From Chloroflexota bacterium (GTDB lineage: Bacteria; Chloroflexota; Dehalococcoidia; DSTF01; JACRBR01): DNA of 64,000 nucleotides. The notes under the pieces are model-generated. The model saw only the letters and a program-made list of their open reading frames with translations. It was not told where the DNA came from and ran no database searches. Location of the stretch: contig JAGWOC010000001.1 of the NCBI GenBank assembly GCA_028872875.1, positions 49,983-113,982 of the forward strand, given 5' to 3'. Position 1 is the stretch's first letter; each line of letters begins with the position of its first letter. Shown here one piece after another: positions 14,212-40,448 of this stretch. The position numbers and the translations under genes were made by a program.

Positions 14212-14769
14212 CTAATCGACATCCGACCACTCGTCCGGCGTCAGGTCGAGCGGCGGACGCGGCGGCGCCGGCGCTTCCTCGCGGGGCGGCTCGGCCGGCG
14301 GCGGGCGCTCGGGCCACGATGGCGGTGCGGCCCACGCCTGCGCGTCGGCCGGCGGCGCCGGCTCCGGCGCCCGCGGCGCCTCGACGAGCTGGATGCTGAG
14401 GCCGTGCGTCGCCGCCATCGTCACGAAGGCGGTACGGACGCCGGGCGCCGCCTCGACGGGCTCACTGACGCGCACGCCCCGCCCGGCCAGCTCCGCCACC
14501 GCCGCGTCCAGGTCATCGACTTCGAGCCCGAGCGTGTAGAAGCCCTCGCCGCGGCGCTCGATGTAGCGCATTACCGGATTGTCGACGTCGGCCGGCGCGA
14601 CGAGCTCCAGCGTGTCCTCGCCGAGCGCGACATCCGCCGAGCGGACGCCGAACGCGTCGACCGCGCCGACCGGCCCGGCGCCGGCGCCGAGGAGCGCGGC
14701 GAATGCCGCGCGCGCGGCCTCGAGGTCGCGCACGGCGGCCGTGACGTGGTGGATGCGGAGGACCTTCAT
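14212..14769 (-). CDS. VOC family protein (glyoxalase/bleomycin-resistance/dioxygenase fold) with a Pro-rich acidic C-terminal tail
   Basis: MKVLRIHHVTAAVRDLEAARAAFAALLG...GEGFYTLGLEVDDLDAAVAELAGRGVRV matches VOC/methylmalonyl-CoA-epimerase-like domains. A roughly 55-aa tail, PRAPEPAPPADAQAWAAPPSWPERPPPAEPPREEAPAPPRPPLDLTPDEWSDVD, follows. An alternative start lies at 14796. Confidence 0.7.
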   Translation of the reverse strand: MKVLRIHHVTAAVRDLEAARAAFAALLGAGAGPVGAVDAFGVRSADVALGEDTLELVAPADVDNPVMRYIERRGEGFYTLGLEVDDLDAAVAELAGRGVRVSEPVEAAPGVRTAFVTMAATHGLSIQLVEAPRAPEPAPPADAQAWAAPPSWPERPPPAEPPREEAPAPPRPPLDLTPDEWSDVD

Positions 14770-14796
14770 CGCCCCGATCCTAACCCACCCCGGCAC

Positions 14797-15313
14797 GCGA
14801 AAGAACAGCGGCCGGCACGGCGCGGGCCAGCGTCCAGCCGCTCACCCTGAACGAGCGGGCCGAAAGGCGTTCTCACAGATCACGCGTCACGCGCTGCAAG
14901 CTCCCCTTCCCCGCAGGGAAGGGGCCAGGGTTCGGTCCCGACGGCACGCAAGCCCGCGCGGGCTGAAGGCCCGCGCTCCCGAGCGCGCGGCGAAAGAACA
15001 GCGGCCGGCACGGCGGCCGCCCGCCTCGAACAGGCCCGCTCGCGCGCCGGACACTGGAAGGAGGAATGCCGGCGGTGGAATGCGTGGCCCGACGCCATCG
15101 CCGCGTCACGCGCGCGGGCTGCCGTATGGCCCGGATGGGAAAGCCCGCGCTACTGCAGCCGCGTATCGGGCGCTGGCCCGCAACCCCGCGCCGGCTGAAG
15201 CCCCGCGCTCCGCGTGCAGCGGTGCTGGTTCATCCGCTCGGGTGGCAACCCCGCGCGCCACGAAGAGGCCGTATCGGCCCATCGGCGTGCAACCCCGCCG
15301 CCCGGCGGGCGCC
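14797..15313. repeat. repeat-dense non-coding region (500 bp) between the beta-helix gene stop and the VOC gene start
   Basis: A 26-bp direct repeat GCGAAAGAACAGCGGCCGGCACGGCG occurs at 14797-14822 and 14990-15015. GGCTGAAG(G/C)CCCGCGCTCC occurs at about 14951-14969 and 15193-15211. CAACCCCGCG occurs three times (about 15180-15300). A 12-bp palindrome GCCCGCGCGGGC lies at about 14951. The palindromic element at 14901-14940 is listed separately. Confidence 0.75.
14901..14940. repeat. conserved palindromic element, copy A: CTCCCCTTCCCC-gca-GGGAAGGGGCCAGGGTTCGGTCCCG
   Basis: A 9-bp inverted repeat CCCCTTCCC / GGGAAGGGG (14903-14911 and 14916-14924) followed by GGCCAGGGTTCGGTC. A near-identical copy lies at 33479-33518. 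Both copies lie about 130-190 nt upstream of a minus-strand gene start (the VOC gene and katG). Confidence 0.8.
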
Positions 15314-16594
15314 TCAGGGCGTCGTCTCGCGGCAGACGCCGGGCGTGTTGTCGACGTTGCCGTAGATCGTGTTGCCGCTCGGTATGACCGCGCCGGCGCG
15401 GTAGATGCAGATCGCCGAGCCGCGGTTATCGTAGATGCTGTTCCCCGTGATGTGCCCGAGCGACGTGTTCACGAACGAGACGCCGATGCCGCGGTTGTCG
15501 TGGATGCGCGAGTTCGTCACATCGAGGTTCGCGCCCTGCGCCAGCACGCCGCCGCCGAGCCGGCCCGTCTCCGCGAGCACCACGCTGTCGTGGATGTCGT
15601 TGTTGTTGATGAGGCCGACCGCGCGCACCGGGAAGTACGGGCCGACGACGCCGTACTTCAGCGGGTCCGGGTAAGCGCGGAACTCGATCGCGTGCTCCTC
15701 GTTGCCGCTGTACTCGTCGCCGTCGGACGACATGTTCGCGCCCCAGACGAAGAGCCCCGTGAGCTTGTTGCGCCAGATGTGGTTGTTGCGCATCACCCCG
15801 CGCGTGCCCGGGAACATCACGATGCCCGTGCTCCCGCTCGCCTGGATCACGTTGCTGTCGAGGATGATGTTCGCGTCGCCGACGAACGCCGGCAGGTCCG
15901 CGAGGTAGCAGACCGGCACGTCGACGAGGCCCGGCGGCAGGAGCGAGCACGGCGTCTGGCCGGCGAAGACGCCCGGGCCCTGGTTGTCGGAGATCACGTT
16001 CTGCACGATCGCCGTCGTCGCCGCTTCGCCGACCGTCGAGACGCCGACGCCGCCGTTCTGCACGATCCAGTTGCGCTGCACCACAAGGTTCGAGCGGCGC
16101 CGCACGAGCACCGCGTCCCCCGCCATCGCGTAGATGATCGAGTCGGTGATGCGGCCCACGCTGCCCACGTCGTAGTGGATGCCGATGCCACCGCCGCCCA
16201 CATCCATCTGCTGGAAGACGATGTTCTGGCTCTGCCAGACGTAGGCGTTCGAGGGGTGTCCGTAGAACAGCATGAAGTTCTCGAACGTCAGGTCCTGGCT
16301 GCTGAAGATCAGCATGCTGTCCTTCGTGCCGCCGGCGACGATCGTCTCGTGCCGCCCGGCGCCGCGCAGCGTGATGCCGGCCTTGTTCTGGAAGAGCAGC
16401 GGCGGGTAGACGCCGGGGGCCATGCAGATCACATCGCCCGGCCGCGCGGCGTTGATCGCCGCCTGGATGTCCGCCGGCCCGGCGTTGCGGGTGCACGCCG
16501 CGGCCGCGATGCGGTGCGCCGGCGGTGCGCCGAGCGCCGCCAGCGCGGCGACAGCAACCAGTGAGACAAGCAGGCACAGCCGCGTCCGCGTCAT
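15314..16594 (-). CDS. secreted right-handed parallel beta-helix repeat protein (pectate-lyase/NosD-like fold)
   Basis: ATG 16594 with GGGAGG upstream. Signal peptide MTRTRLCLLVSLVAVAALAALGAPPA. Many repeats of the type I.NN.I..N...G........I.GN are present. The first 34 codons of the track ORF are upstream junk. The alternative overlapping ORF 15426..16655 was rejected. Confidence 0.75.
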   Translation of the reverse strand: MTRTRLCLLVSLVAVAALAALGAPPAHRIAAAACTRNAGPADIQAAINAARPGDVICMAPGVYPPLLFQNKAGITLRGAGRHETIVAGGTKDSMLIFSSQDLTFENFMLFYGHPSNAYVWQSQNIVFQQMDVGGGGIGIHYDVGSVGRITDSIIYAMAGDAVLVRRRSNLVVQRNWIVQNGGVGVSTVGEAATTAIVQNVISDNQGPGVFAGQTPCSLLPPGLVDVPVCYLADLPAFVGDANIILDSNVIQASGSTGIVMFPGTRGVMRNNHIWRNKLTGLFVWGANMSSDGDEYSGNEEHAIEFRAYPDPLKYGVVGPYFPVRAVGLINNNDIHDSVVLAETGRLGGGVLAQGANLDVTNSRIHDNRGIGVSFVNTSLGHITGNSIYDNRGSAICIYRAGAVIPSGNTIYGNVDNTPGVCRETTP

Positions 16595-16749
16595 CCTGAC
16601 CTCCCGAACCTCGCGACGACGTGGCGTCGCCGGCAGCCCTGCCGCACCGGAGCATCCTACCCGATGCGCCGCGCTGATGTCAGACCGTGGGAACATTCAC
16701 AGTTCGCACCCGCGAGTGCGAACGAAGCGGGCGGGGCAGGGGCGCGGGG

Positions 16750-30607: not shown

Positions 30608-31111
30608 TCAGTGCCCAACACCGCCGGCGCCCGCCGCCGGCGCCTGCCGGCCGCCCGGTTGCACAGCCTGCCCCGAGGCGGGCTCCATGCGCTGGCTCGC
30701 GGAGGATCCTGCGCAGCGGGGGCATACGCCGTAGAAGTCGAGCCGTTGCCCCATGACCTGAAAGCCGCTCGCCCTGGTCAACGTCTCTCGCAGGCTGGCG
30801 ACGGCCCCATCCTCGTCGATCCTGGCATCCGTGATACTGCTGCACTTGACGCAGATGAGGTTAGCGTGCAGCAGAGGGTTTGCGTCGTAGCGGGTACCGA
30901 GGCGAAAGTGGAGTGGCTGTACCAAACCCTTTTCGGACAGGACGTTCAGCGTGTTGTACACGGTCGCTCGCGTGATGTGCGGTACGTGCTGCCTGACACG
31001 CTCATACACGTCTTGAGCGGATGGATGATCGGTTGAGTTGGCAAGCACTTCTGCTACAGCCAGCCGCTGTGCGGTCACCCTGATACCCCGCTGCCTCAAC
31101 GTTGCAATCAT
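30608..31111 (-). CDS. Fur family transcriptional regulator (PerR/FurA-like; sits downstream of katG)
   Basis: TAQRLAVAEVLANSTDHPSAQDVYERVRQHVPHITRATVYNTLNVLSEKGLV is a winged-helix region. CVKCSS...CPRC are the two CxxC structural-Zn pairs. Confidence 0.85.
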   Translation of the reverse strand: MIATLRQRGIRVTAQRLAVAEVLANSTDHPSAQDVYERVRQHVPHITRATVYNTLNVLSEKGLVQPLHFRLGTRYDANPLLHANLICVKCSSITDARIDEDGAVASLRETLTRASGFQVMGQRLDFYGVCPRCAGSSASQRMEPASGQAVQPGGRQAPAAGAGGVGH

Positions 31112-31189: not shown

Positions 31190-33355
<2,166 letters not shown>

Positions 33356-33478: not shown

Positions 33479-33518
33479 GAACTCCCCTTCCCCCGGAGGG
33501 AAGGGGCCGGGGGTTAGG
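33479..33518. repeat. conserved palindromic element, copy B: CTCCCCTTCCCCC-gga-GGGAAGGGGCCGGGGGTTAGGTCGGCG
   Basis: Inverted repeat CCCCTTCCC (33481-33489) / GGGAAGGGG (33495-33503). Same architecture as 14901-14940. It lies in the katG 5' region, between the PerR box and the katG start. Confidence 0.8.
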
Positions 33519-33549
33519 TCGGCGGGGCCCGCTTGCCGGCTGGCCTTGT

Positions 33550-33564
33550 TTAGAATCATTATAA
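33550..33564. promoter_or_regulatory. PerR/Fur-box-like operator TTAGAATCATTATAA upstream of katG
   Basis: 14 of 15 positions match the B. subtilis PerR-box consensus TTATAATNATTATAA. It sits in an AT-rich patch of the divergent katG / giant-surface-protein intergenic region. Confidence 0.6.
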
Positions 33565-33740
33565 AGGACTGCCATCGCTTGTCAAGCTGTGTGTGCCGGG
33601 ACACCATCGCATGCGTTACGTAATCTTTTCAGCGCGTCAACGGTTGCTGGCCTACAACCATTGCATTAGTCCGCTCAAAGAGTAGGATCGTCCCACCATC
33701 GTCGGAATGCTCTCACGGCATGGGGCCGAAACGAGGCGGC

Positions 33741-36700
33741 ATGTTCTCAGCACGCGCGTGTGCGGGGGCCCTTGCCCTCCTGGCCATCGGCGTCATCGTG
33801 GCGGGTGGCTCGCCCGGGCCCCTGCAGGGCGCCCGGCTGCCGGCCGCTGTTGCGGTAGCGCCGGCGGCGACGCCCGCCATACCCATGGTGGCTGTCGGCG
33901 GCCGGCACACCTGTGCGCTCAACAGCAACGGCGCCGTGCGCTGCTGGGGCCGCAACGCCGACGGCGAGCTCGGCGACGGCACGACGATCAGCCGGCAGCG
34001 CCCGGCCCTCGTCGCCGGCCTGAGCAGCGGCGTCACGGCGATCGCCGCGGGCTTCTCGCACACCTGTGCGCTGACCACCGGCGGCGGCGTCAAGTGCTGG
34101 GGCAGCAACGCCGACGGCGAGCTGGGCGACTTCACGCAGGTGAACCGATCGATGCCGGTCGACGTGATCAACCTAACGACCGGCGTCGTCGCCATCTCCG
34201 CCGGCGACCGCCACACGTGCGCGCTGCTGGCGGCCGGCGGCATGCGCTGCTGGGGCTACAACGTCTACGGCGAGGTCGGCAACGGCACCAGCGGCAACCT
34301 CTGGCTCGGCGCCGTCGACGTCTGCACGAGCGGCTCCGGCATTGGCTGCGCCGGCGGCGCGCCGCTCACCGGCATCGCATCGATGTCGGCCGGCGGCATC
34401 AACACCTGCGCCGTGACGACGGCCGGCGCCCTGAAGTGCTGGGGCGGCAACTACAGCGGCCAGTTGGGCCTCGGCATCCTGTCGGACAGCCCGCTGCCGC
34501 CCGGGGGCGTCTGTCCTACGTCCCCGGACGCCAACGCCACGTGCATCTCCCTTCCGACCGACGTCCCGAGCCTGCAGAGCGGGGTCGCGGCGGTCAACGC
34601 GGGCCAGACCGCGTGCGCGCTGACCACGGCCGGCGGCGTGATGTGCTGGGGGCTCAACAATGTGGGGGAGACCGGCAGTGGCATCGTGTCGCCCTGCAAC
34701 CCGAAGGTGCCGCCGCAGCCATACGTGGCGTGCGATCGCCCGCAGCCCGACCCGGCCGCTGTGAGCGGCCTGAGCAGCGGCGTCGCCGCGATCTCGGGCG
34801 GCTGCGCACTGCTGTTGACCGGCGGGGTGAAATGCTGGGGAGAAAACCTGTTCGGCCAGATCGGCGACGGCACGACAACCGTCCGGACGACGCCGGTGGG
34901 CGTGTTGGGCCTGGGGTCCGGCGTCGCATCGATCGGTCCGGGCCAAGACGCCGTGCACCACTGCGTCACGATGGCCGCGGGCGGCCTGAAGTGCTGGGGG
35001 TCGAACAGTTGGGGCCAGTTGGGCGCGACATCTGCCGACACTTGCTTTCTCGGCTTTGCCTGCAGCCTCGTGCCGATCGACGTGCAGCAGTGCACGATCT
35101 GCGTGCTCGACATGTCTTTCGAGCACCAGGTCTATCCCGACGAGGCCAACTGGGCGCCGGTCGCCGCGCAAGGGACGGTCGATGGCAACCAGGTGCGCGT
35201 CAAGGCGACGCTCCGGAACCAGGCGGGCACCGATCAGCCGGTCACGGTCGAGTTCCGTGACGCGGACACGGGTACGCTCCTGCCCGGCGGCTCGATCGAT
35301 GGCACGGTACCGGCGTCGGGCGAGTTACCCGTCACCTACGTCTGGAATACAGACGGTTTTGCCTGGGACGGCGGCGCCGCGCGCAGCCCCCGGCACGTCC
35401 GCGTCACCGTCCTGCAGGGCGCGACGACGCAGGACACCGACATCCGCGGCATCAAGATCGTCCCGAAGCCGGTCGTGCTGGTGCACGGCTGGAACAGCAA
35501 TTTCGGCACCTGGGCGTCATACCAGGGGTTCCTGACGTCGGTCAGCCCGGACTGGAAGGCGTTTGCTGTCGGCGACGGCCAGGCGCCCGGCGTCATGAAC
35601 ACGGGCTCGATGTCCCATCCCTTCACGCTGACCAACACCATCGACCAGAACGCCATCGAGATGTCGCAGTACGTGCACGGCGTCCGCCAACAGATGAACG
35701 CATGGCACGTCGATGTGGTCGCGCACTCCATGGGCGGGCTGATCTCGCGGGACTACATCCAGTACTGGATGCCGCCGGACGCGTATGCGCGTCCCGTCAT
35801 CGACCATCTCGTGATGCTCGGCACGCCGAACCAGGGCACCTCGTGCGCCGACCTCGGGGCGGCCATCCTTGGGCCGCTGGGAGCCGGCGCCTTCCTGTTT
35901 CCGGCGACCCTGCAACTCACCAAGACCTACCTCGCGATCTTCAACCAGCAGGTGACGAACCGCCGCGGCGTGAAGTTCTCGATTTCCGCAGGCGACCCGA
36001 TCCCGATCACTTGCCTCGAAGGTGCGGGCGACGAGATCGTGCCGTACCGAAGCGCCCTCATGCTCGACCCGCTGCCCGGGACGCCGATCACCGACTCGGA
36101 GTCGCGCTCGATCCTGCACCACCACATGCCGGGCGATCCGGGCCAGTTCAACCAGTTCGTCAAGCCGCGGCTCACCGGCGTCCTGCCAGCGCCCGCGGCA
36201 GCGTCGGCCGCTGGTGCGCACGCGCCCGTACGAGCTGTCGCCGCCGTTGCACCGCCGCCGGTCGTCGCGCCGCAGATCCTGGCGGGAGTCGGTGTCGAGG
36301 TCGCGGCCGGGGGGATGGCGGACGTGCCCTTCACGGTGACCGATGGCACGCGCATCGGTGTGACGCTGATCGCCGCGTCCTCGGTGACGACAGAGCTGCA
36401 CAATCCAGTGGGTACGGTCGCGGCCTCGGCCGCGGCGGGCAGCGACGCCGCGCAGGCGGGCCTGCGCACGCTCACGGTCGATACCCCCAGCGCCGGCGTC
36501 TGGACGCTGCACCTCGTGAACACGGATGGCGCCGCGCCGGCAGACGTCGCCGGGTCGGCGTGGGTCGACGGCAGCGCGGTGCAGCTCGTCCTCGCGCCGC
36601 CCACACCGGCTCCGGACGGCTCAGTCCCGCTCACCGCCACGCTCACCAACGGGGGCAGCGCGCTGGCGGGCGCCACCATCACGGCCATGCTCACGGGCGC

Positions 36701-39700
36701 CGACGGCCTGCACGGCCCGGCGACTCTGCTCGATGACGGGCTGCACGGCGACGGCGCGGCCGGCGACGGGATCTACGGCGGCACGACGGCCGCGCTAGCC
36801 CCCGGGCTTTACAGCGTCGCGGTACAGGCCACCGCCCCCGGCGTCTCGCGATTCACAACCGGCGCGGTCGAGATCGCGACCGCGGCCGCCACGCCCACAC
36901 CGACGGCCAGCGCGACCGCCAGCAGCACGCCGACAAGCGCCGCCACCGCCACACCCACGCCGACGGACACGCCCACCGCTGTGCCGACCGCGACCGACAC
37001 GCCGGCCGTCACCAGCACCGCGACGGCGACGCCAACGGCGACCGCGACGCCCTCGCTCGTGTACAACGTGAACAGCACCGCCGACGTCGTCGATGCGCAC
37101 CCCGGCGACGGCGTCTGCGCCACCGGGGCCGGCGAGTGCACGCTCCGTGCCGCGGTCATGGAGGCCAACGTCCAGTCGATCCGCGCCGGCATGCCGACGA
37201 TCAACCTCCCGGCGGGCGTCTACACGCTGACTCGCGGCCCGGCCGACGACATCCGCTTCGGGTCGGACTTCGTTGATTCGTCGGGCGACCTGGATCAGCG
37301 GAGCATGGCCATCCACGGCGCCGGTCCCTCCGCCACGATCATCGACGGCGGCCGCATCGACCGGATCTTCGAGGTGTTCGGTGACCACGTCACGATCAGC
37401 GGCGTCACGCTCCGCAACGGCGATGCGAAGCTTGCGGACGGGACGCAGACGGTCGGCGACGCGATCTTCGTCTACGGCCCCGGGAGTGCGAAGCTGTCGC
37501 TCAGCGACGCCGTCATCAGCGGCAACGGCGCCGGCGATGCCGCGATCGCGGTCAACGGCGCGCTCACGATCACCGACAGCACCATCGAGGGGAACGCCGG
37601 CGGCGGCATCCGCGTCGGGAACGGTTCGCTCTCCCTGCTGCGCAGCAGCGTCAAGGGCAACGCCGGCGCCGGCATCCGCACCGAGAATCAGTACGGCTTC
37701 GGGACCGCGACCGTCACGGACAGCACGATCAGCGGCAACCACCTCGGTGGTGACGGCGCGGGCGTCTGGAACAGCGGCGCGCTGACGCTCCTCCGCAGCA
37801 CCGTCAGCGGCAACACCGCCGGTGGCCGCGGCGGCGGCATCGCGAACTTTGGCACGGCGACGATCACCGACAGCACGATCAGCAGCAACGCCGCCGAGGT
37901 GGACGGTGGCGGCATCTTCAACGACTTCCCGCGCGCCGCGCACCTGACGCTCACGAACGTCACCGTCGCGCACAACCTCGCGGATAGCGACCAGACGGGC
38001 TCGGGCGACGGCGGCGGCGTCTACAATGGCGGCATCGGCACCGTTACGCTCACCAACACGCTCCTCGCCGCGAACACCGATGCGGGCGGAGAGGCGCCGG
38101 ACTGCGGCGGCTCGCTCGTGTCCGGCGGGCACAACCTCCTCCAGTCCTCAGCCAGCTGCGCGCTCTCGCCGCAGGCCGGCGACCGCATCGGCGTCACGGC
38201 CGCGCTCGGCCCGCTCGCCGACAACGGCGGCCCGACGTTCACCCACGCCCTCCTCGCGGGCAGCCCGGCGATCGACGCCGCCGACCCGCTGATGTGTGGC
38301 GCGACGGACCAGCGCAGCCGAGTCCGCCCCGTCGATGGCAACGCCGACGGCACCCCCGTGTGCGACATCGGCGCCGTCGAGTTCGACCCTGCGGACGGGC
38401 CGCCGGCGTCGCTGGCGCCGCCCCCGCCCGCACCGGCGCCGCTCGTCGCGTTCACCGTCGACAGCTTCGCCGACGGCGTCGACGCCGCGCCCGGCAACGG
38501 CGTCTGCGCGACGGCCGGCGGCGCCTGCACGTTGCGCGCCGCCGTCATGGAGGCGAACAAGCTCTCCGGCACGAACGTCATCAGGCTCGGCGCCGGCACC
38601 TACCAGCTCTCGATCCCGACGCTGGAGGTCTACGCCCCGGACGCCTCGCGGGGCGACCTTGACGTGTCCGAAGGGCTCGTCATCGAAGGCACGGGCGCGG
38701 CGGCGACCGTCATCGACGGTGGAGGGCTCGACGGCGTCATCAACAGCGGCGGGGTGCTGGAGCTCAAGGGACTGACGATCCGCAACGGCGCGCCGTCGCA
38801 CACCCCGGGCGGCGCCAGCGTCGGCGGCGGCGGCGTGGGCGCGCTCGTCCTGCTGCTCCAGGATGTGGACGCGACGGGGAACCAGGGCACCGCGGTCGGC
38901 GGCGGCTGGATCGTCGCACGCCGCATCCACGTCACTTCGAATAGCATCGGATCCGCGGTATCTACAGGGTACGGCTCGCTGTTCCTGGCCGACAGCATCG
39001 TCAGCGGCACGGCCTTCGGCGGCGGCATCACGACGAGCGTCCCGGCCGTGGTCCTCCGCTCCACCGTCACGGGAAACGCCCGGAGCGGCATCGACATCCA
39101 GGACGCGTCGGCCGACATCATCGACAGCACGATCAGCGGCAACCACGCCGACACGAGTGGTGGCGGCGTCGAGATTGGGTACGGCGACGTGCGCATCAGC
39201 GGCACGACCATCGACGGCAACAGCAGCACCGGCAGCGGCGGCGGCATCGACAACAACGGCACCCTCGTGCTCACCAACAGCACGATCAGCGGCAACAGCG
39301 CCAGCCAGTGGGGCGGCGGCCTGATCAACAACAATCTTGGCACGGCGACACTGCGCAACGTGACGATCACCGCCAACACGGCGCAAAGCGGCGGCAGCGC
39401 CTTCGGCGATGGCGGAGGCATCTACCAGAGCAGCATCCACGCGATCACCCTCGAAAACACGATCATTGCCGGCAACACCGACGCCGGCGGCCAGGCGCCC
39501 GACTGCTCGGGCACGCTCCCGTCGCCGTCCTACAACCTGATCGGCGACATGAGCGGCTGCACGATCGTCGGCACCAGCACGGCGAACATCCTCGGTCGGG
39601 CCGCCCGCCTCGGCCCGCTGCAGGACAACGGCGGGCCGACGCTGACGCACGCGCTGCTCGCCGGCAGCCCCGCCATCGACCAGGGCGGCGACGCCCTGTG

Positions 39701-40448
39701 CGCGCCGACGGACCAGCGCGGCGTCCGCCGCCCGATCGACGGCGACGGCGACGGCGTGGCGGCGTGCGACATCGGCGCCTTCGAGGCCCCAGCCGTCGCC
39801 GGCGCACCGACGGCAACACCCACGAGCACGCCAACCGCCACGCCAACCGCCACGGCGACGGACACGCCGGTGGCTACCAGCACGCCCACGTCCACCCTGA
39901 CGCCGCCCGCGACCAGCACCAGCACGCCGCCCGCCTCCGCAACCAGCACCGCGACGGATACACCGGTGCCGACCACGACCGCGGCACCCACGGCGACCGC
40001 CACAACCACGGCCGTGCACACCGCGACGGCCACAGCTACCTCCATCGCGACGAGCACGCCCACGCCGCCCGCCACCGCGACGGCCGTGCCCCCGGCGAAG
40101 GCGACAGCAAGCAGCACGTCCACCGTGACGGCGACGGCGACGCCCACGCCGGCGGGCTCGGCGGCACCGATCTACTCTGTCGCCACGGCGACCCCGTCAT
40201 CCGCTCCGGCGCCGAGCCCGTCGCCATCCGGCGCCACGCCCCGGGCGACCCCTACGCTGGTCAGTAGCGCGCTCGCCGCCACGGCACAACGCGGCGGCTC
40301 GGCGCCGGTTGCCGGTCTACCCAACACCGGCGCAGCACCGCCCAGGGCGTCCGCCGGGCCGCGCACATGGCTTATGGCGGCTGGCGTGCTCGCCCTCATC
40401 GCGCTCGCGGCCGCACACGCCGCGTCACGCGGGCGGCGCCGCCGCTAG
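33741..40448 (+). CDS. giant LPXTG-anchored multidomain surface protein: signal peptide, RCC1 propeller, beta-sandwich, LipA-type lipase domain, 2x CSLREA/beta-helix/choice-of-anchor-Q-like modules, T/P-rich linkers, LPNTG sorting signal
   Basis: Single ORF 33720..40448. ATG 33741 is preferred (GAGG 5 nt upstream; signal peptide MFSARACAGALALLAIGVIVAGG). RCC1-type repeats with recurring HTCAL...CWG.N..GELG. Lipase-like block PKPVVLVHGW...VDVVAHSMGGLISRDY (AHSMGG at 35721-35738). Two modules begin GDGVCAT..C.LRAAVMEAN (37138-37170 and 38526-38558) and end GGPT.THALLAGSPAID...TDQR...RP.DG..DG...CDIGA(V/F)E (38361-38384 and 39766-39789). C-terminus LPNTG (40317-40331) + AAGVLALIALAAAHAA + RGRRRR. 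Confidence 0.85.
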   Translation: MFSARACAGALALLAIGVIVAGGSPGPLQGARLPAAVAVAPAATPAIPMVAVGGRHTCALNSNGAVRCWGRNADGELGDGTTISRQRPALVAGLSSGVTAIAAGFSHTCALTTGGGVKCWGSNADGELGDFTQVNRSMPVDVINLTTGVVAISAGDRHTCALLAAGGMRCWGYNVYGEVGNGTSGNLWLGAVDVCTSGSGIGCAGGAPLTGIASMSAGGINTCAVTTAGALKCWGGNYSGQLGLGILSDSPLPPGGVCPTSPDANATCISLPTDVPSLQSGVAAVNAGQTACALTTAGGVMCWGLNNVGETGSGIVSPCNPKVPPQPYVACDRPQPDPAAVSGLSSGVAAISGGCALLLTGGVKCWGENLFGQIGDGTTTVRTTPVGVLGLGSGVASIGPGQDAVHHCVTMAAGGLKCWGSNSWGQLGATSADTCFLGFACSLVPIDVQQCTICVLDMSFEHQVYPDEANWAPVAAQGTVDGNQVRVKATLRNQAGTDQPVTVEFRDADTGTLLPGGSIDGTVPASGELPVTYVWNTDGFAWDGGAARSPRHVRVTVLQGATTQDTDIRGIKIVPKPVVLVHGWNSNFGTWASYQGFLTSVSPDWKAFAVGDGQAPGVMNTGSMSHPFTLTNTIDQNAIEMSQYVHGVRQQMNAWHVDVVAHSMGGLISRDYIQYWMPPDAYARPVIDHLVMLGTPNQGTSCADLGAAILGPLGAGAFLFPATLQLTKTYLAIFNQQVTNRRGVKFSISAGDPIPITCLEGAGDEIVPYRSALMLDPLPGTPITDSESRSILHHHMPGDPGQFNQFVKPRLTGVLPAPAAASAAGAHAPVRAVAAVAPPPVVAPQILAGVGVEVAAGGMADVPFTVTDGTRIGVTLIAASSVTTELHNPVGTVAASAAAGSDAAQAGLRTLTVDTPSAGVWTLHLVNTDGAAPADVAGSAWVDGSAVQLVLAPPTPAPDGSVPLTATLTNGGSALAGATITAMLTGADGLHGPATLLDDGLHGDGAAGDGIYGGTTAALAPGLYSVAVQATAPGVSRFTTGAVEIATAAATPTPTASATASSTPTSAATATPTPTDTPTAVPTATDTPAVTSTATATPTATATPSLVYNVNSTADVVDAHPGDGVCATGAGECTLRAAVMEANVQSIRAGMPTINLPAGVYTLTRGPADDIRFGSDFVDSSGDLDQRSMAIHGAGPSATIIDGGRIDRIFEVFGDHVTISGVTLRNGDAKLADGTQTVGDAIFVYGPGSAKLSLSDAVISGNGAGDAAIAVNGALTITDSTIEGNAGGGIRVGNGSLSLLRSSVKGNAGAGIRTENQYGFGTATVTDSTISGNHLGGDGAGVWNSGALTLLRSTVSGNTAGGRGGGIANFGTATITDSTISSNAAEVDGGGIFNDFPRAAHLTLTNVTVAHNLADSDQTGSGDGGGVYNGGIGTVTLTNTLLAANTDAGGEAPDCGGSLVSGGHNLLQSSASCALSPQAGDRIGVTAALGPLADNGGPTFTHALLAGSPAIDAADPLMCGATDQRSRVRPVDGNADGTPVCDIGAVEFDPADGPPASLAPPPPAPAPLVAFTVDSFADGVDAAPGNGVCATAGGACTLRAAVMEANKLSGTNVIRLGAGTYQLSIPTLEVYAPDASRGDLDVSEGLVIEGTGAAATVIDGGGLDGVINSGGVLELKGLTIRNGAPSHTPGGASVGGGGVGALVLLLQDVDATGNQGTAVGGGWIVARRIHVTSNSIGSAVSTGYGSLFLADSIVSGTAFGGGITTSVPAVVLRSTVTGNARSGIDIQDASADIIDSTISGNHADTSGGGVEIGYGDVRISGTTIDGNSSTGSGGGIDNNGTLVLTNSTISGNSASQWGGGLINNNLGTATLRNVTITANTAQSGGSAFGDGGGIYQSSIHAITLENTIIAGNTDAGGQAPDCSGTLPSPSYNLIGDMSGCTIVGTSTANILGRAARLGPLQDNGGPTLTHALLAGSPAIDQGGDALCAPTDQRGVRRPIDGDGDGVAACDIGAFEAPAVAGAPTATPTSTPTATPTATATDTPVATSTPTSTLTPPATSTSTPPASATSTATDTPVPTTTAAPTATATTTAVHTATATATSIATSTPTPPATATAVPPAKATASSTSTVTATATPTPAGSAAPIYSVATATPSSAPAPSPSPSGATPRATPTLVSSALAATAQRGGSAPVAGLPNTGAAPPRASAGPRTWLMAAGVLALIALAAAHAASRGRRRR

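Follow-up and report, generated by a model that had tools for sequence, protein, structure and literature searches.

The 64,000-nucleotide stretch of Chloroflexota DNA analyzed here (the window; assembly GCA_028872875.1, contig JAGWOC010000001.1, positions 49,983 to 113,982) contains two copies, A and B, of a palindromic element of about 40 nucleotides (nt). They lie upstream of two minus-strand genes, a glyoxalase/VOC-family gene and katG, respectively. Copy A (CTCCCCTTCCCCGCAGGGAAGGGGCCAGGGTTCGGTCCCG) was located on the plus strand at 14901-14940, precisely where an earlier note on this DNA had placed it, 132-171 nt ahead of the VOC gene start. Copy B (CTCCCCTTCCCCCGGAGGGAAGGGGCCGGGGGTTAGGTCGGCG) was present with the string quoted in that note, but its span is 33482-33524 (plus strand), about 3 nt to the right of the 33479-33518 given there, and it lies 157-199 nt ahead of the katG start. 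A search with the core CCCCTTCCC-N3-7-GGGAAGGGG matched the window only at 14903-14924 and 33484-33506, both on the plus strand, and gave no match in 100 dinucleotide-preserving shuffles of the window. The perfect 9-bp inverted repeat, the 4-5-nt spacer, and the shared orientation described earlier were thereby confirmed, and Pfam matches upheld the identification of the neighboring minus-strand genes. Both copies have the general form CT-CCCCTTCCC-N4/5-GGGAAGGGG-CC(A/G)-G/T-rich tail on the same strand, and they are alike over about 40 nt only, with no resemblance beyond. Both are intergenic singletons with no inverted partner. The parts of the two copies are listed below, followed by the genes and promoter around them.

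14903-14911, plus strand: pyrimidine (Y) arm of copy A, CCCCTTCCC (pattern search, triplex finder, folding)
14912-14915, plus strand: loop 1 of copy A, CGCA (pattern search, triplex finder)
14916-14924, plus strand: purine (R) arm of copy A, GGGAAGGGG, predicted to form a 9-bp Watson-Crick hairpin with the Y arm
14925-14927, plus strand: loop 2 of copy A, CCA, or GCCA in the 8-nt register of the finder (triplex finder)
14928-14935, plus strand: putative reverse-Hoogsteen (RH) arm of copy A, GGGTTCGG, antiparallel to the R arm (triplex finder)
33484-33492, plus strand: Y arm of copy B, CCCCTTCCC (pattern search, triplex finder, folding)
33493-33497, plus strand: loop 1 of copy B, CCGGA (sequence, pattern search)
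33498-33506, plus strand: R arm of copy B, GGGAAGGGG (pattern search, triplex finder, folding)
33507-33509, plus strand: loop 2 of copy B, CCG (triplex finder)
33510-33518, plus strand: putative RH arm of copy B, GGGGTTAGG (triplex finder)
14212-14769, minus strand: Glyoxalase_4/VOC gene (Pfam)
15314-16696, minus strand: right-handed beta-helix gene (Pfam)
30608-31111, minus strand: Fur-family gene, following katG (Pfam)
31190-33325, minus strand: KatG (Pfam)
33558-33585, minus strand: predicted katG promoter with a PerR-like box (33550-33564), context outside the element (sequence; inferred transcription start)
33720-40448, plus strand: RCC1/beta-helix open reading frame (ORF) of 2242 amino acids (Pfam)

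The conserved tail reported in the earlier note was indeed present; what the note had missed is that the tail mirrors the purine arm. In both copies the tail is antiparallel to the R arm, with G facing G and T facing A. The succession of Y arm, R arm, and Hoogsteen arm on one strand corresponds to a class II intrastrand triplex motif, class II denoting the purine motif with a reverse-Hoogsteen third strand, as in the ITxF criteria of Holder et al. 2015 and in the PIT (potential intrastrand triplex) element that Hoyne et al. described in 2000. Such motifs are known as BoxC, which was found in Escherichia coli in the 1990s (Bachellier et al.) and was rediscovered by Hoyne and Maher as PIT (Hoyne et al. 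2000, 2002; PMC4666352); Holder et al. renamed BoxC/PIT as TMECO, with the sequence CCCTCNCCC-N3-6-GGGNGAGGG-N3-GGGNGAGGG and a second loop that is TTA in type A and CCG in type B (PMC4666352).

A triplex finder written for the purpose (stem of at least 8, exact Watson-Crick hairpin, at most one Hoogsteen mismatch, short loops) detected copies A and B and nothing else in the window. It gave no class I sites there and no sites in 100 dinucleotide shuffles, so that the two occurrences exceed chance. For complementary Y and R arms, for which ITxF allows 6-15 nt, both copies have a perfect 9-bp stem, and for loops, for which it allows 1-6 nt, loop 1 is 4 nt in copy A and 5 nt in copy B and loop 2 is 3-4 nt in copy A and 3 nt in copy B. 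The third arm stays within the one mismatch allowed for stems longer than 7: in copy B, 8 of 9 triplets are allowed, the exception being a single A·G mismatch that is the one kept family-wide, and in copy A, the allowed G·G-C and T·A-T triplets account for 7 of 8, the remaining one being a C·G mismatch. The second loop, CCG in copy B and CCA in copy A, was scored as fitting the TTA or CCG of TMECO. Copy A is a family member, somewhat decayed.

A scan of 185,579 species genomes with the pattern CCCCTTCCC-N3-7-GGGAAGGGGCC returned at least 120 stretches, and 120 loci of 8 kb (designated L plus a number) were listed. Most of the matches listed had the 5' CT, the same hairpin, the linker CCG, and the tail GGGGTTAGGT, commonly as GGGGTTAGG(T). 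Their hosts included many Chloroflexota with several copies per genome, among them the chromosome OY759972.1 with at least 9 copies over 0.66-4.13 Mb, together with “delta proteobacterium” metagenome-assembled genomes (MAGs), Casimicrobiaceae and other Betaproteobacteria, Alphaproteobacteria, Nitrospirota, Candidatus Binatus, Nostoc, and Hymenobacter, at least six phyla in all. A total of 90 canonical members were held by 73 of the 120 loci. Among these members, loop 2 was CCG in 63, CCA in 7, and TTA in 5, and the tail was GGGGTTAGG in 71, GGGGATGGG in 14, and GGGGATAGG in 5. The tail was directly followed by T in 83% of canonical members, which is explained by the T·A-T triplet that this base would make with the T...A pair that usually closes loop 1. 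Copy B agrees with the family consensus. Matches in actinomycetes were plain long palindromes of a different kind and were set apart from the family. On plasmids the element was rare (10 records, chiefly from Sphingomonas megaplasmids, with one from a Calothrix plasmid), it was absent from the cultured phage genomes searched, and 21 IMG/VR stretches carried it with the same tail; the association with plasmids or phages is weak. Literal element sequences retrieved only unrelated eukaryotic primer or microRNA papers from the full-text literature.

The relation between tail and stem was examined in 52 polypyrimidine/polypurine hairpins of the listed loci, none of which contained the search seed. 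The 3' tail fitted the purine arm of its own hairpin with at most one mismatch in 40 of the 52 and perfectly in 29, against 18.4 ± 2.9 fits, with a maximum of 26 in 1000 trials, when tails and arms were randomly re-paired. Among 40 asymmetric arms, the antiparallel register fitted 29 and the parallel register 9. Furthermore, the third arm was one-sided, the opposite flank of the hairpin having at least 3 mismatches. The third-arm base facing A was T in 263 cases, A in 70, and G in 1; this T/A degeneracy is expected for T·A-T and A·A-T triplets and is unlike Watson-Crick pairing or a fixed protein site. Co-varying pairs of arm and tail included AGGAAAGGGGG / GGGGGATAGGT, AAAGGGGG / GGGGGTTT, AGGAGAGAGG / GGAGAGAGGT, and GGGAGGGGG / GGGGGTGGG. 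This covariation is the strongest evidence for the proposed three-arm design, and a third arm that co-varies with dozens of stems provides comparative evidence that the design is maintained.

Gene context was counted in 105 high-GC loci with a caller based on GC content at third codon positions (GC3) that reproduces the genes of the window. Although intergenic bases made up 20% of these loci, 102 of the 126 elements (81%) were intergenic, and the arrangements of flanking genes were about equally represented: both genes reading rightward (>E>) in 25 cases, both leftward (<E<) in 27, convergent (>E<) in 17, and divergent (<E>) in 17. The family is thus dispersed between genes with no bias of strand, orientation, or gene function. 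Searches with tblastn for KatG, VOC, Fur, and beta-helix homologs found none in any of the 120 listed loci.

Several of the listed loci showed arrangements of their own. In Chloroflexota MAG loci L010, L018, L023, L051, L062, L067, L068, L108, and L109, the element forms part of a conserved composite repeat that extends over about 110 nt, with the layout ggcagcggcggaccggcgccgcca..ct [element] ccaacccgcctcc..ccgaaaaacctacccctgt, and about 350 nt separate the copy at L018:6729-6763 from a 16S rRNA gene downstream. In Burkholderiales, L015, L024, L063, L070, L077, L091, and L095, from the genera Methylibium, Xenophilus, Hydrogenophaga, Piscinibacter, and Ideonella, apparently represent one conserved locus, where the same hairpin has its third arm on the other strand, as in GAGGGAAGGGG / GGGGATGGGTG (11/11 triplets, L091), and a second hairpin, CCCGCCCGTGGGCGGG, comes next on the opposite side.

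Upstream of katG in the window, a sigma-70 consensus promoter, TTGACA-16-TATAAT (12/12), was found on the minus strand at 33585-33558, with a PerR-like AT-rich box, TTATAATGATTCTAA (33564-33550, minus strand), overlapping its -10 sequence. These coordinates bear out the order of PerR box, element, and ribosome-binding site that had been proposed for katG. Copy B is predicted to occupy about +27 to +69 of the katG 5' untranslated region (UTR), and the transcript would contain its C-rich complement. In the relatives L121 and L122, with KatG proteins 88% and 87% identical, the promoter (with a similar TTGACA) and the PerR-like AT-rich box were retained upstream of katG, but the element was present neither there nor anywhere in the 22 kb of each. 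The katG gene here has an ordinary consensus promoter with a PerR-like box, and a tempting false lead is removed for annotation. The 2242-amino-acid ORF, which is divergent from katG, has RCC1 repeats at its N terminus, a lipase/thioesterase-like region, repeated beta-helix-type units, and Thr/Pro-rich linkers.

The syntenic beta-helix/VOC/GT4 spacer of the relatives L144 and L145 (VOC proteins 82-84% identical) also lacked the element. The beta-helix/VOC spacer is 335 and 244 nt long in these relatives versus 544 nt in the window, and an imperfect tandem duplication (about 200 nt) at 14790-15225 makes up part of the extra length in the window (unit 1, 14790-14989; unit 2, 14983-15225; about 77% column identity). 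The repeat-dense region reported around copy A is this duplication. An empty site for copy A was sought in the second tandem unit and in the spacers of the relatives, where the alignments were too diverged for insertion boundaries or target duplications. About 50 nt directly upstream of the VOC start were nearly invariant in three genomes (window, 14766-14815, minus strand; L144:5960-6003; L145:4089-4132), reading CGCTGTTCTTTCGCG(C/T)GCCGGGGTGGGTTAGGATCGG(G/A)GCGATG, even though the VOC proteins are just 82-84% identical; the distal half of this segment, GCGAAAGAACAGCGGCCGGCACGGCG, is copied by the tandem duplication, at 14797 and 14990. By this comparison, the conserved leader of the VOC gene is this segment of about 50 nt and not the palindromic element. 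The assignment of the gene to the VOC family held (Pfam Glyoxalase_4), but its description as a stress-type gene is doubtful: JGI names for homologs of the protein (14212-14769, minus strand) were repeatedly methylmalonyl-CoA/ethylmalonyl-CoA epimerase. The protein may be a metabolic epimerase instead of a stress enzyme, and the naming weakens the premise of two stress genes.

The earlier note had offered a shared stress operator, a structured 5'-UTR RNA, and a dispersed repeat resembling repetitive extragenic palindromic (REP) sequences as explanations, and had named scattering of copies irrespective of gene context and lack of conservation in relatives as observations that would speak against a regulatory role. 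Both were found, and of the three explanations the last was essentially right, with many copies regardless of genes and none at the corresponding loci of relatives. As an operator, the element would be the palindromic site through which one regulator governs both katG and the VOC gene during oxidative or electrophile stress, and a perfect 9-bp palindrome found in one orientation ahead of two genes, katG among them, is what such a site might look like. It is nevertheless very improbable that the element has this role: it was not kept upstream of katG where the PerR-like box and promoter were, nor in the VOC spacer, whose conserved 50 nt lie elsewhere; copy B is downstream of the predicted katG promoter; the VOC homologs are named as epimerases; and the family occurs in all gene arrangements and in at least six phyla, at listed loci that hold no KatG, VOC, or Fur homolog. 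A cis-acting RNA, either a 5'-UTR hairpin or riboregulator or a 3' stabilizer or terminator-like hairpin in adjacent transcripts, would accord with the predicted position of copy B in the katG 5' UTR, with the 9-bp GC hairpin that either strand could form, and with locus L056, where six copies end 1-6 nt before the start codons of phage tail genes and the G-rich tail could double as a ribosome-binding site. As a general property, however, start codons were not enriched just after the tail (17 of 148 elements, versus 12 in a mirror control and 17% at random positions), and a general ribosome-binding role of the tail was rejected, the pattern being striking in L056 only. Rfam 15 gave no match in the window at the gathering threshold, and permissive E-values brought only chance-level microRNA or ctRNA matches; the family shows no orientation bias to flanking genes; and the katG and VOC mRNAs of the window would carry the C-rich complement. 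In addition, RNA is reported not to form purine-motif triplexes, and no promoter or terminator activity was seen for PIT elements (PMC4666352). A function in RNA is accordingly unlikely, and neither regulatory explanation of the earlier note was supported.

Two further explanations do without the triplex. In one, the G tracts of the purine arm and tail would fold as a G-quadruplex, a structure that competes in principle (Holder et al., PMC4666352) and for which copy B offers four tracts of at least three G if a 10-nt loop is allowed. The family consensus, though, has three such tracts plus a GG only, many co-varying members cannot make a three-tetrad quadruplex (for example, AAAGGGGG/GGGGGTTT and GGAGAGGGGG/GGGGGTGAGG), the excess of antiparallel over parallel fits reflects a mirror rule that a quadruplex does not require, and the quadruplex was excluded for TMECO by nuclear magnetic resonance (NMR) (PMC4666352). 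This fold is scarcely credible for the element, and both it and the pyrimidine motif of the complementary strand were rejected on sequence grounds. In the other, the element would be a mobile repeat like REP or REPIN, its hairpin and flanks recognized by a dedicated nuclease or transposase (RAYT/IS200-like or other) and copied around the genome; the mirror tail would then be part of a recognition site and not a triplex arm, an account that partly overlaps with the triplex one. Its dispersed, intergenic, multi-copy nature, its differing presence between relatives, its near-identity over at least six phyla, including the 5' CT and the A in TTAGG that lie outside the triplex rule, and its 21 IMG/VR stretches all suit mobility. 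So does L056, a “delta proteobacterium” MAG locus (CAWBJH010000001.1, 928001-936000) with 9 elements in 8 kb. Its genes form a P2-like tail or tailocin module (gp25, Baseplate_J, Tail_P2_I, a gp53-like fiber protein, and GH108), the elements occupy the intercistronic gaps, and in three of the gaps they form REPIN-like inverted pairs about 30 nt apart; five inverted TMECO pairs are reported in E. coli K-12 (PMC4666352). Against mobility, the 10 ORFs of L056 encode phage tail proteins with no transposase among them, and no transposase was linked to the element in the 64-kb window or the 8-kb loci, where no search was aimed at RAYT. TMECO is reported to have no association with transposons, phages, or plasmids (Holder et al., PMC4666352), and plasmids seldom carry the present element, which was missing from cultured phage genomes. 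Moreover, covariation of the tail with many different stems, following a G·G and T/A·A rule, is not what one would expect of a protein site. Recognition and copying of this kind, with no triplex involved, is a minority possibility that we regard as doubtful but worth keeping in view.

The two copies in the window are very probably members of a repeat family that is scattered between genes and has the class II, G/C-rich purine-motif intrastrand triplex architecture of the BoxC/PIT/TMECO kind. The analysis showed a sequence that conforms to the triplex rule, tails that change together with many different stems as the rule demands, and a multi-copy, intergenic family indifferent to the type and orientation of genes. 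Several observations weigh against this interpretation. The Watson-Crick hairpin energy is unexceptional for its base composition (z = -0.5 to -1.4 versus shuffles), in calculations with folding tools that score Watson-Crick pairs only and cannot score triplexes. Copy A fits just 7 of 8 triplets and has a shortened G run, only 2 copies are visible within the 64-kb window, and the window copies fail the strict TMECO sequence pattern. For TMECO itself, in vivo dimethyl sulfate (DMS) footprinting gave no triplex protection (PMC4666352). Finally, the subfamily is near-identical across phyla, including the A·G position that breaks the triplex rule and the conserved 5' CT; these two features, which the rule does not explain, hint at a sequence-specific partner or a mobility mechanism.

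Should the triplex form, it would do so when the G-rich plus strand becomes single-stranded, for example through replication, repair, or extrusion driven by supercoiling. The Y and R arms would then pair as a 9-bp hairpin, and the 3' G/T tail would turn back at the 3-nt CCG/CCA loop and lie in the major groove, running antiparallel to the R arm and making G·G-C and T·A-T triplets. We infer that the window copies behave like the rest of the family and that they are lineage-specific insertions or remnants; if they influence katG and the VOC gene at all, they probably do so incidentally. A bolder proposal, which we put forward as speculation with a small chance of being right, is that the CCCCTTCCC/GGGGTTAGG subfamily is a structure-defined “triplex REPIN,” horizontally mobile between phyla, perhaps on phage or tailocin DNA, and copied by a structure-specific enzyme. 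If true, it would account for the retention, in Chloroflexota, Nostoc, Nitrospirota, Binatus, and Betaproteobacteria alike, of the 5' CT, the CCG loop, and the A in TTAGG that breaks the rule, as well as for the nine copies, some of them inverted pairs, in the tail-operon gaps of L056. The triplex-type family has in any case a wider reach than the motifs described before: BoxC/PIT/TMECO-type motifs have so far been characterized mainly in Proteobacteria and noted in Cyanobacteria, and the present subfamily, closely related and highly conserved, reaches Chloroflexota and several other phyla.

Known systems resemble the element to different degrees. PerR/Fur-box operators of katG share with it a palindrome near the katG promoter, but the box here is a separate AT-rich sequence over the -10, whereas the element is rich in GC, sits on the downstream side of the promoter, and has not been kept with katG. 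REP, BIME, and REPIN sequences, the last mobilized by RAYT, are likewise short GC-rich extragenic palindromes with many copies, some inverted doublets, and variation between strains; unlike the present element, REPs have no mirror-repeat third arm and are normally species-specific, where the present element is near-identical across phyla, and REP/REPIN are defined by an associated RAYT gene. Mirror repeats that form H-DNA share the purine-motif reverse-Hoogsteen G·G-C and T·A-T triplets and a link to polymerase stalling and instability. H-DNA, however, requires a mirror repeat in duplex DNA, half of one strand being donated, whereas the present element has three arms in series on one strand, a palindrome plus a mirror.

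The closest counterpart is BoxC/PIT/TMECO. TMECO oligonucleotides form a very stable triplex by circular dichroism and NMR; TMECO is always intergenic, has no bias of strand or gene function, occurs at times in inverted pairs, and marks loci of raised variability between strains; and these elements block DNA polymerase in vitro (PMC4666352). Of 5426 complete E. coli genomes, 5409 matched a type-A query taken from the text of Holder et al. (median, 15 places per genome), and the matches were nearly always chromosomal and unannotated. The present family shares with TMECO the order of parts (a 9-nt C/T arm, a 3-6-nt loop, a purine arm, a 3-nt loop, and a mirroring G-rich arm), the same two types of loop 2 (mostly CCG and some TTA in the present family), the common occurrence of one conserved mismatch, and the habit of an intergenic, multi-copy, unbiased repeat that sometimes forms inverted pairs and varies between relatives. 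It differs in sequence, the window stem being CCCCTTCCC/GGGAAGGGG with tail GGGGTTAGG (copy B) or GGGTTCGG (copy A) versus CCCTCNCCC/GGGNGAGGG/GGGNGAGGG; in the place of the mismatch, which is in the Hoogsteen arm here (A·G) and in the Watson-Crick stem in TMECO “type A mm”; and in its host, a MAG of Chloroflexota, a phylum unmentioned in PMC4666352. The TMECO triplex was demonstrated biophysically on E. coli oligonucleotides, whereas the window variant is known from its sequence. Exact TMECO type-B motifs, CCCTCTCCC-N3-GGGAGAGGG-CCG-GGGTGAGGG, were present in Chloroflexota genomes that carry the CCCCTTCCC variant. Such sites were seen in the Chloroflexota MAG loci L027 (2850-2882), L060, L082, L086, and L094 (242-274 and 2709-2741), and a third subfamily, CCCCCTCTCC-N7-GGAGAGGGGG-CCG-GGGGGTGAGG, occurs beside TMECO type B in Chloroflexota MAGs. 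Because the architecture and the loop-2 types are common to both and the strict sequence is not, the element was filed as a putative class II G/C-rich intrastrand triplex repeat and not as strict TMECO.

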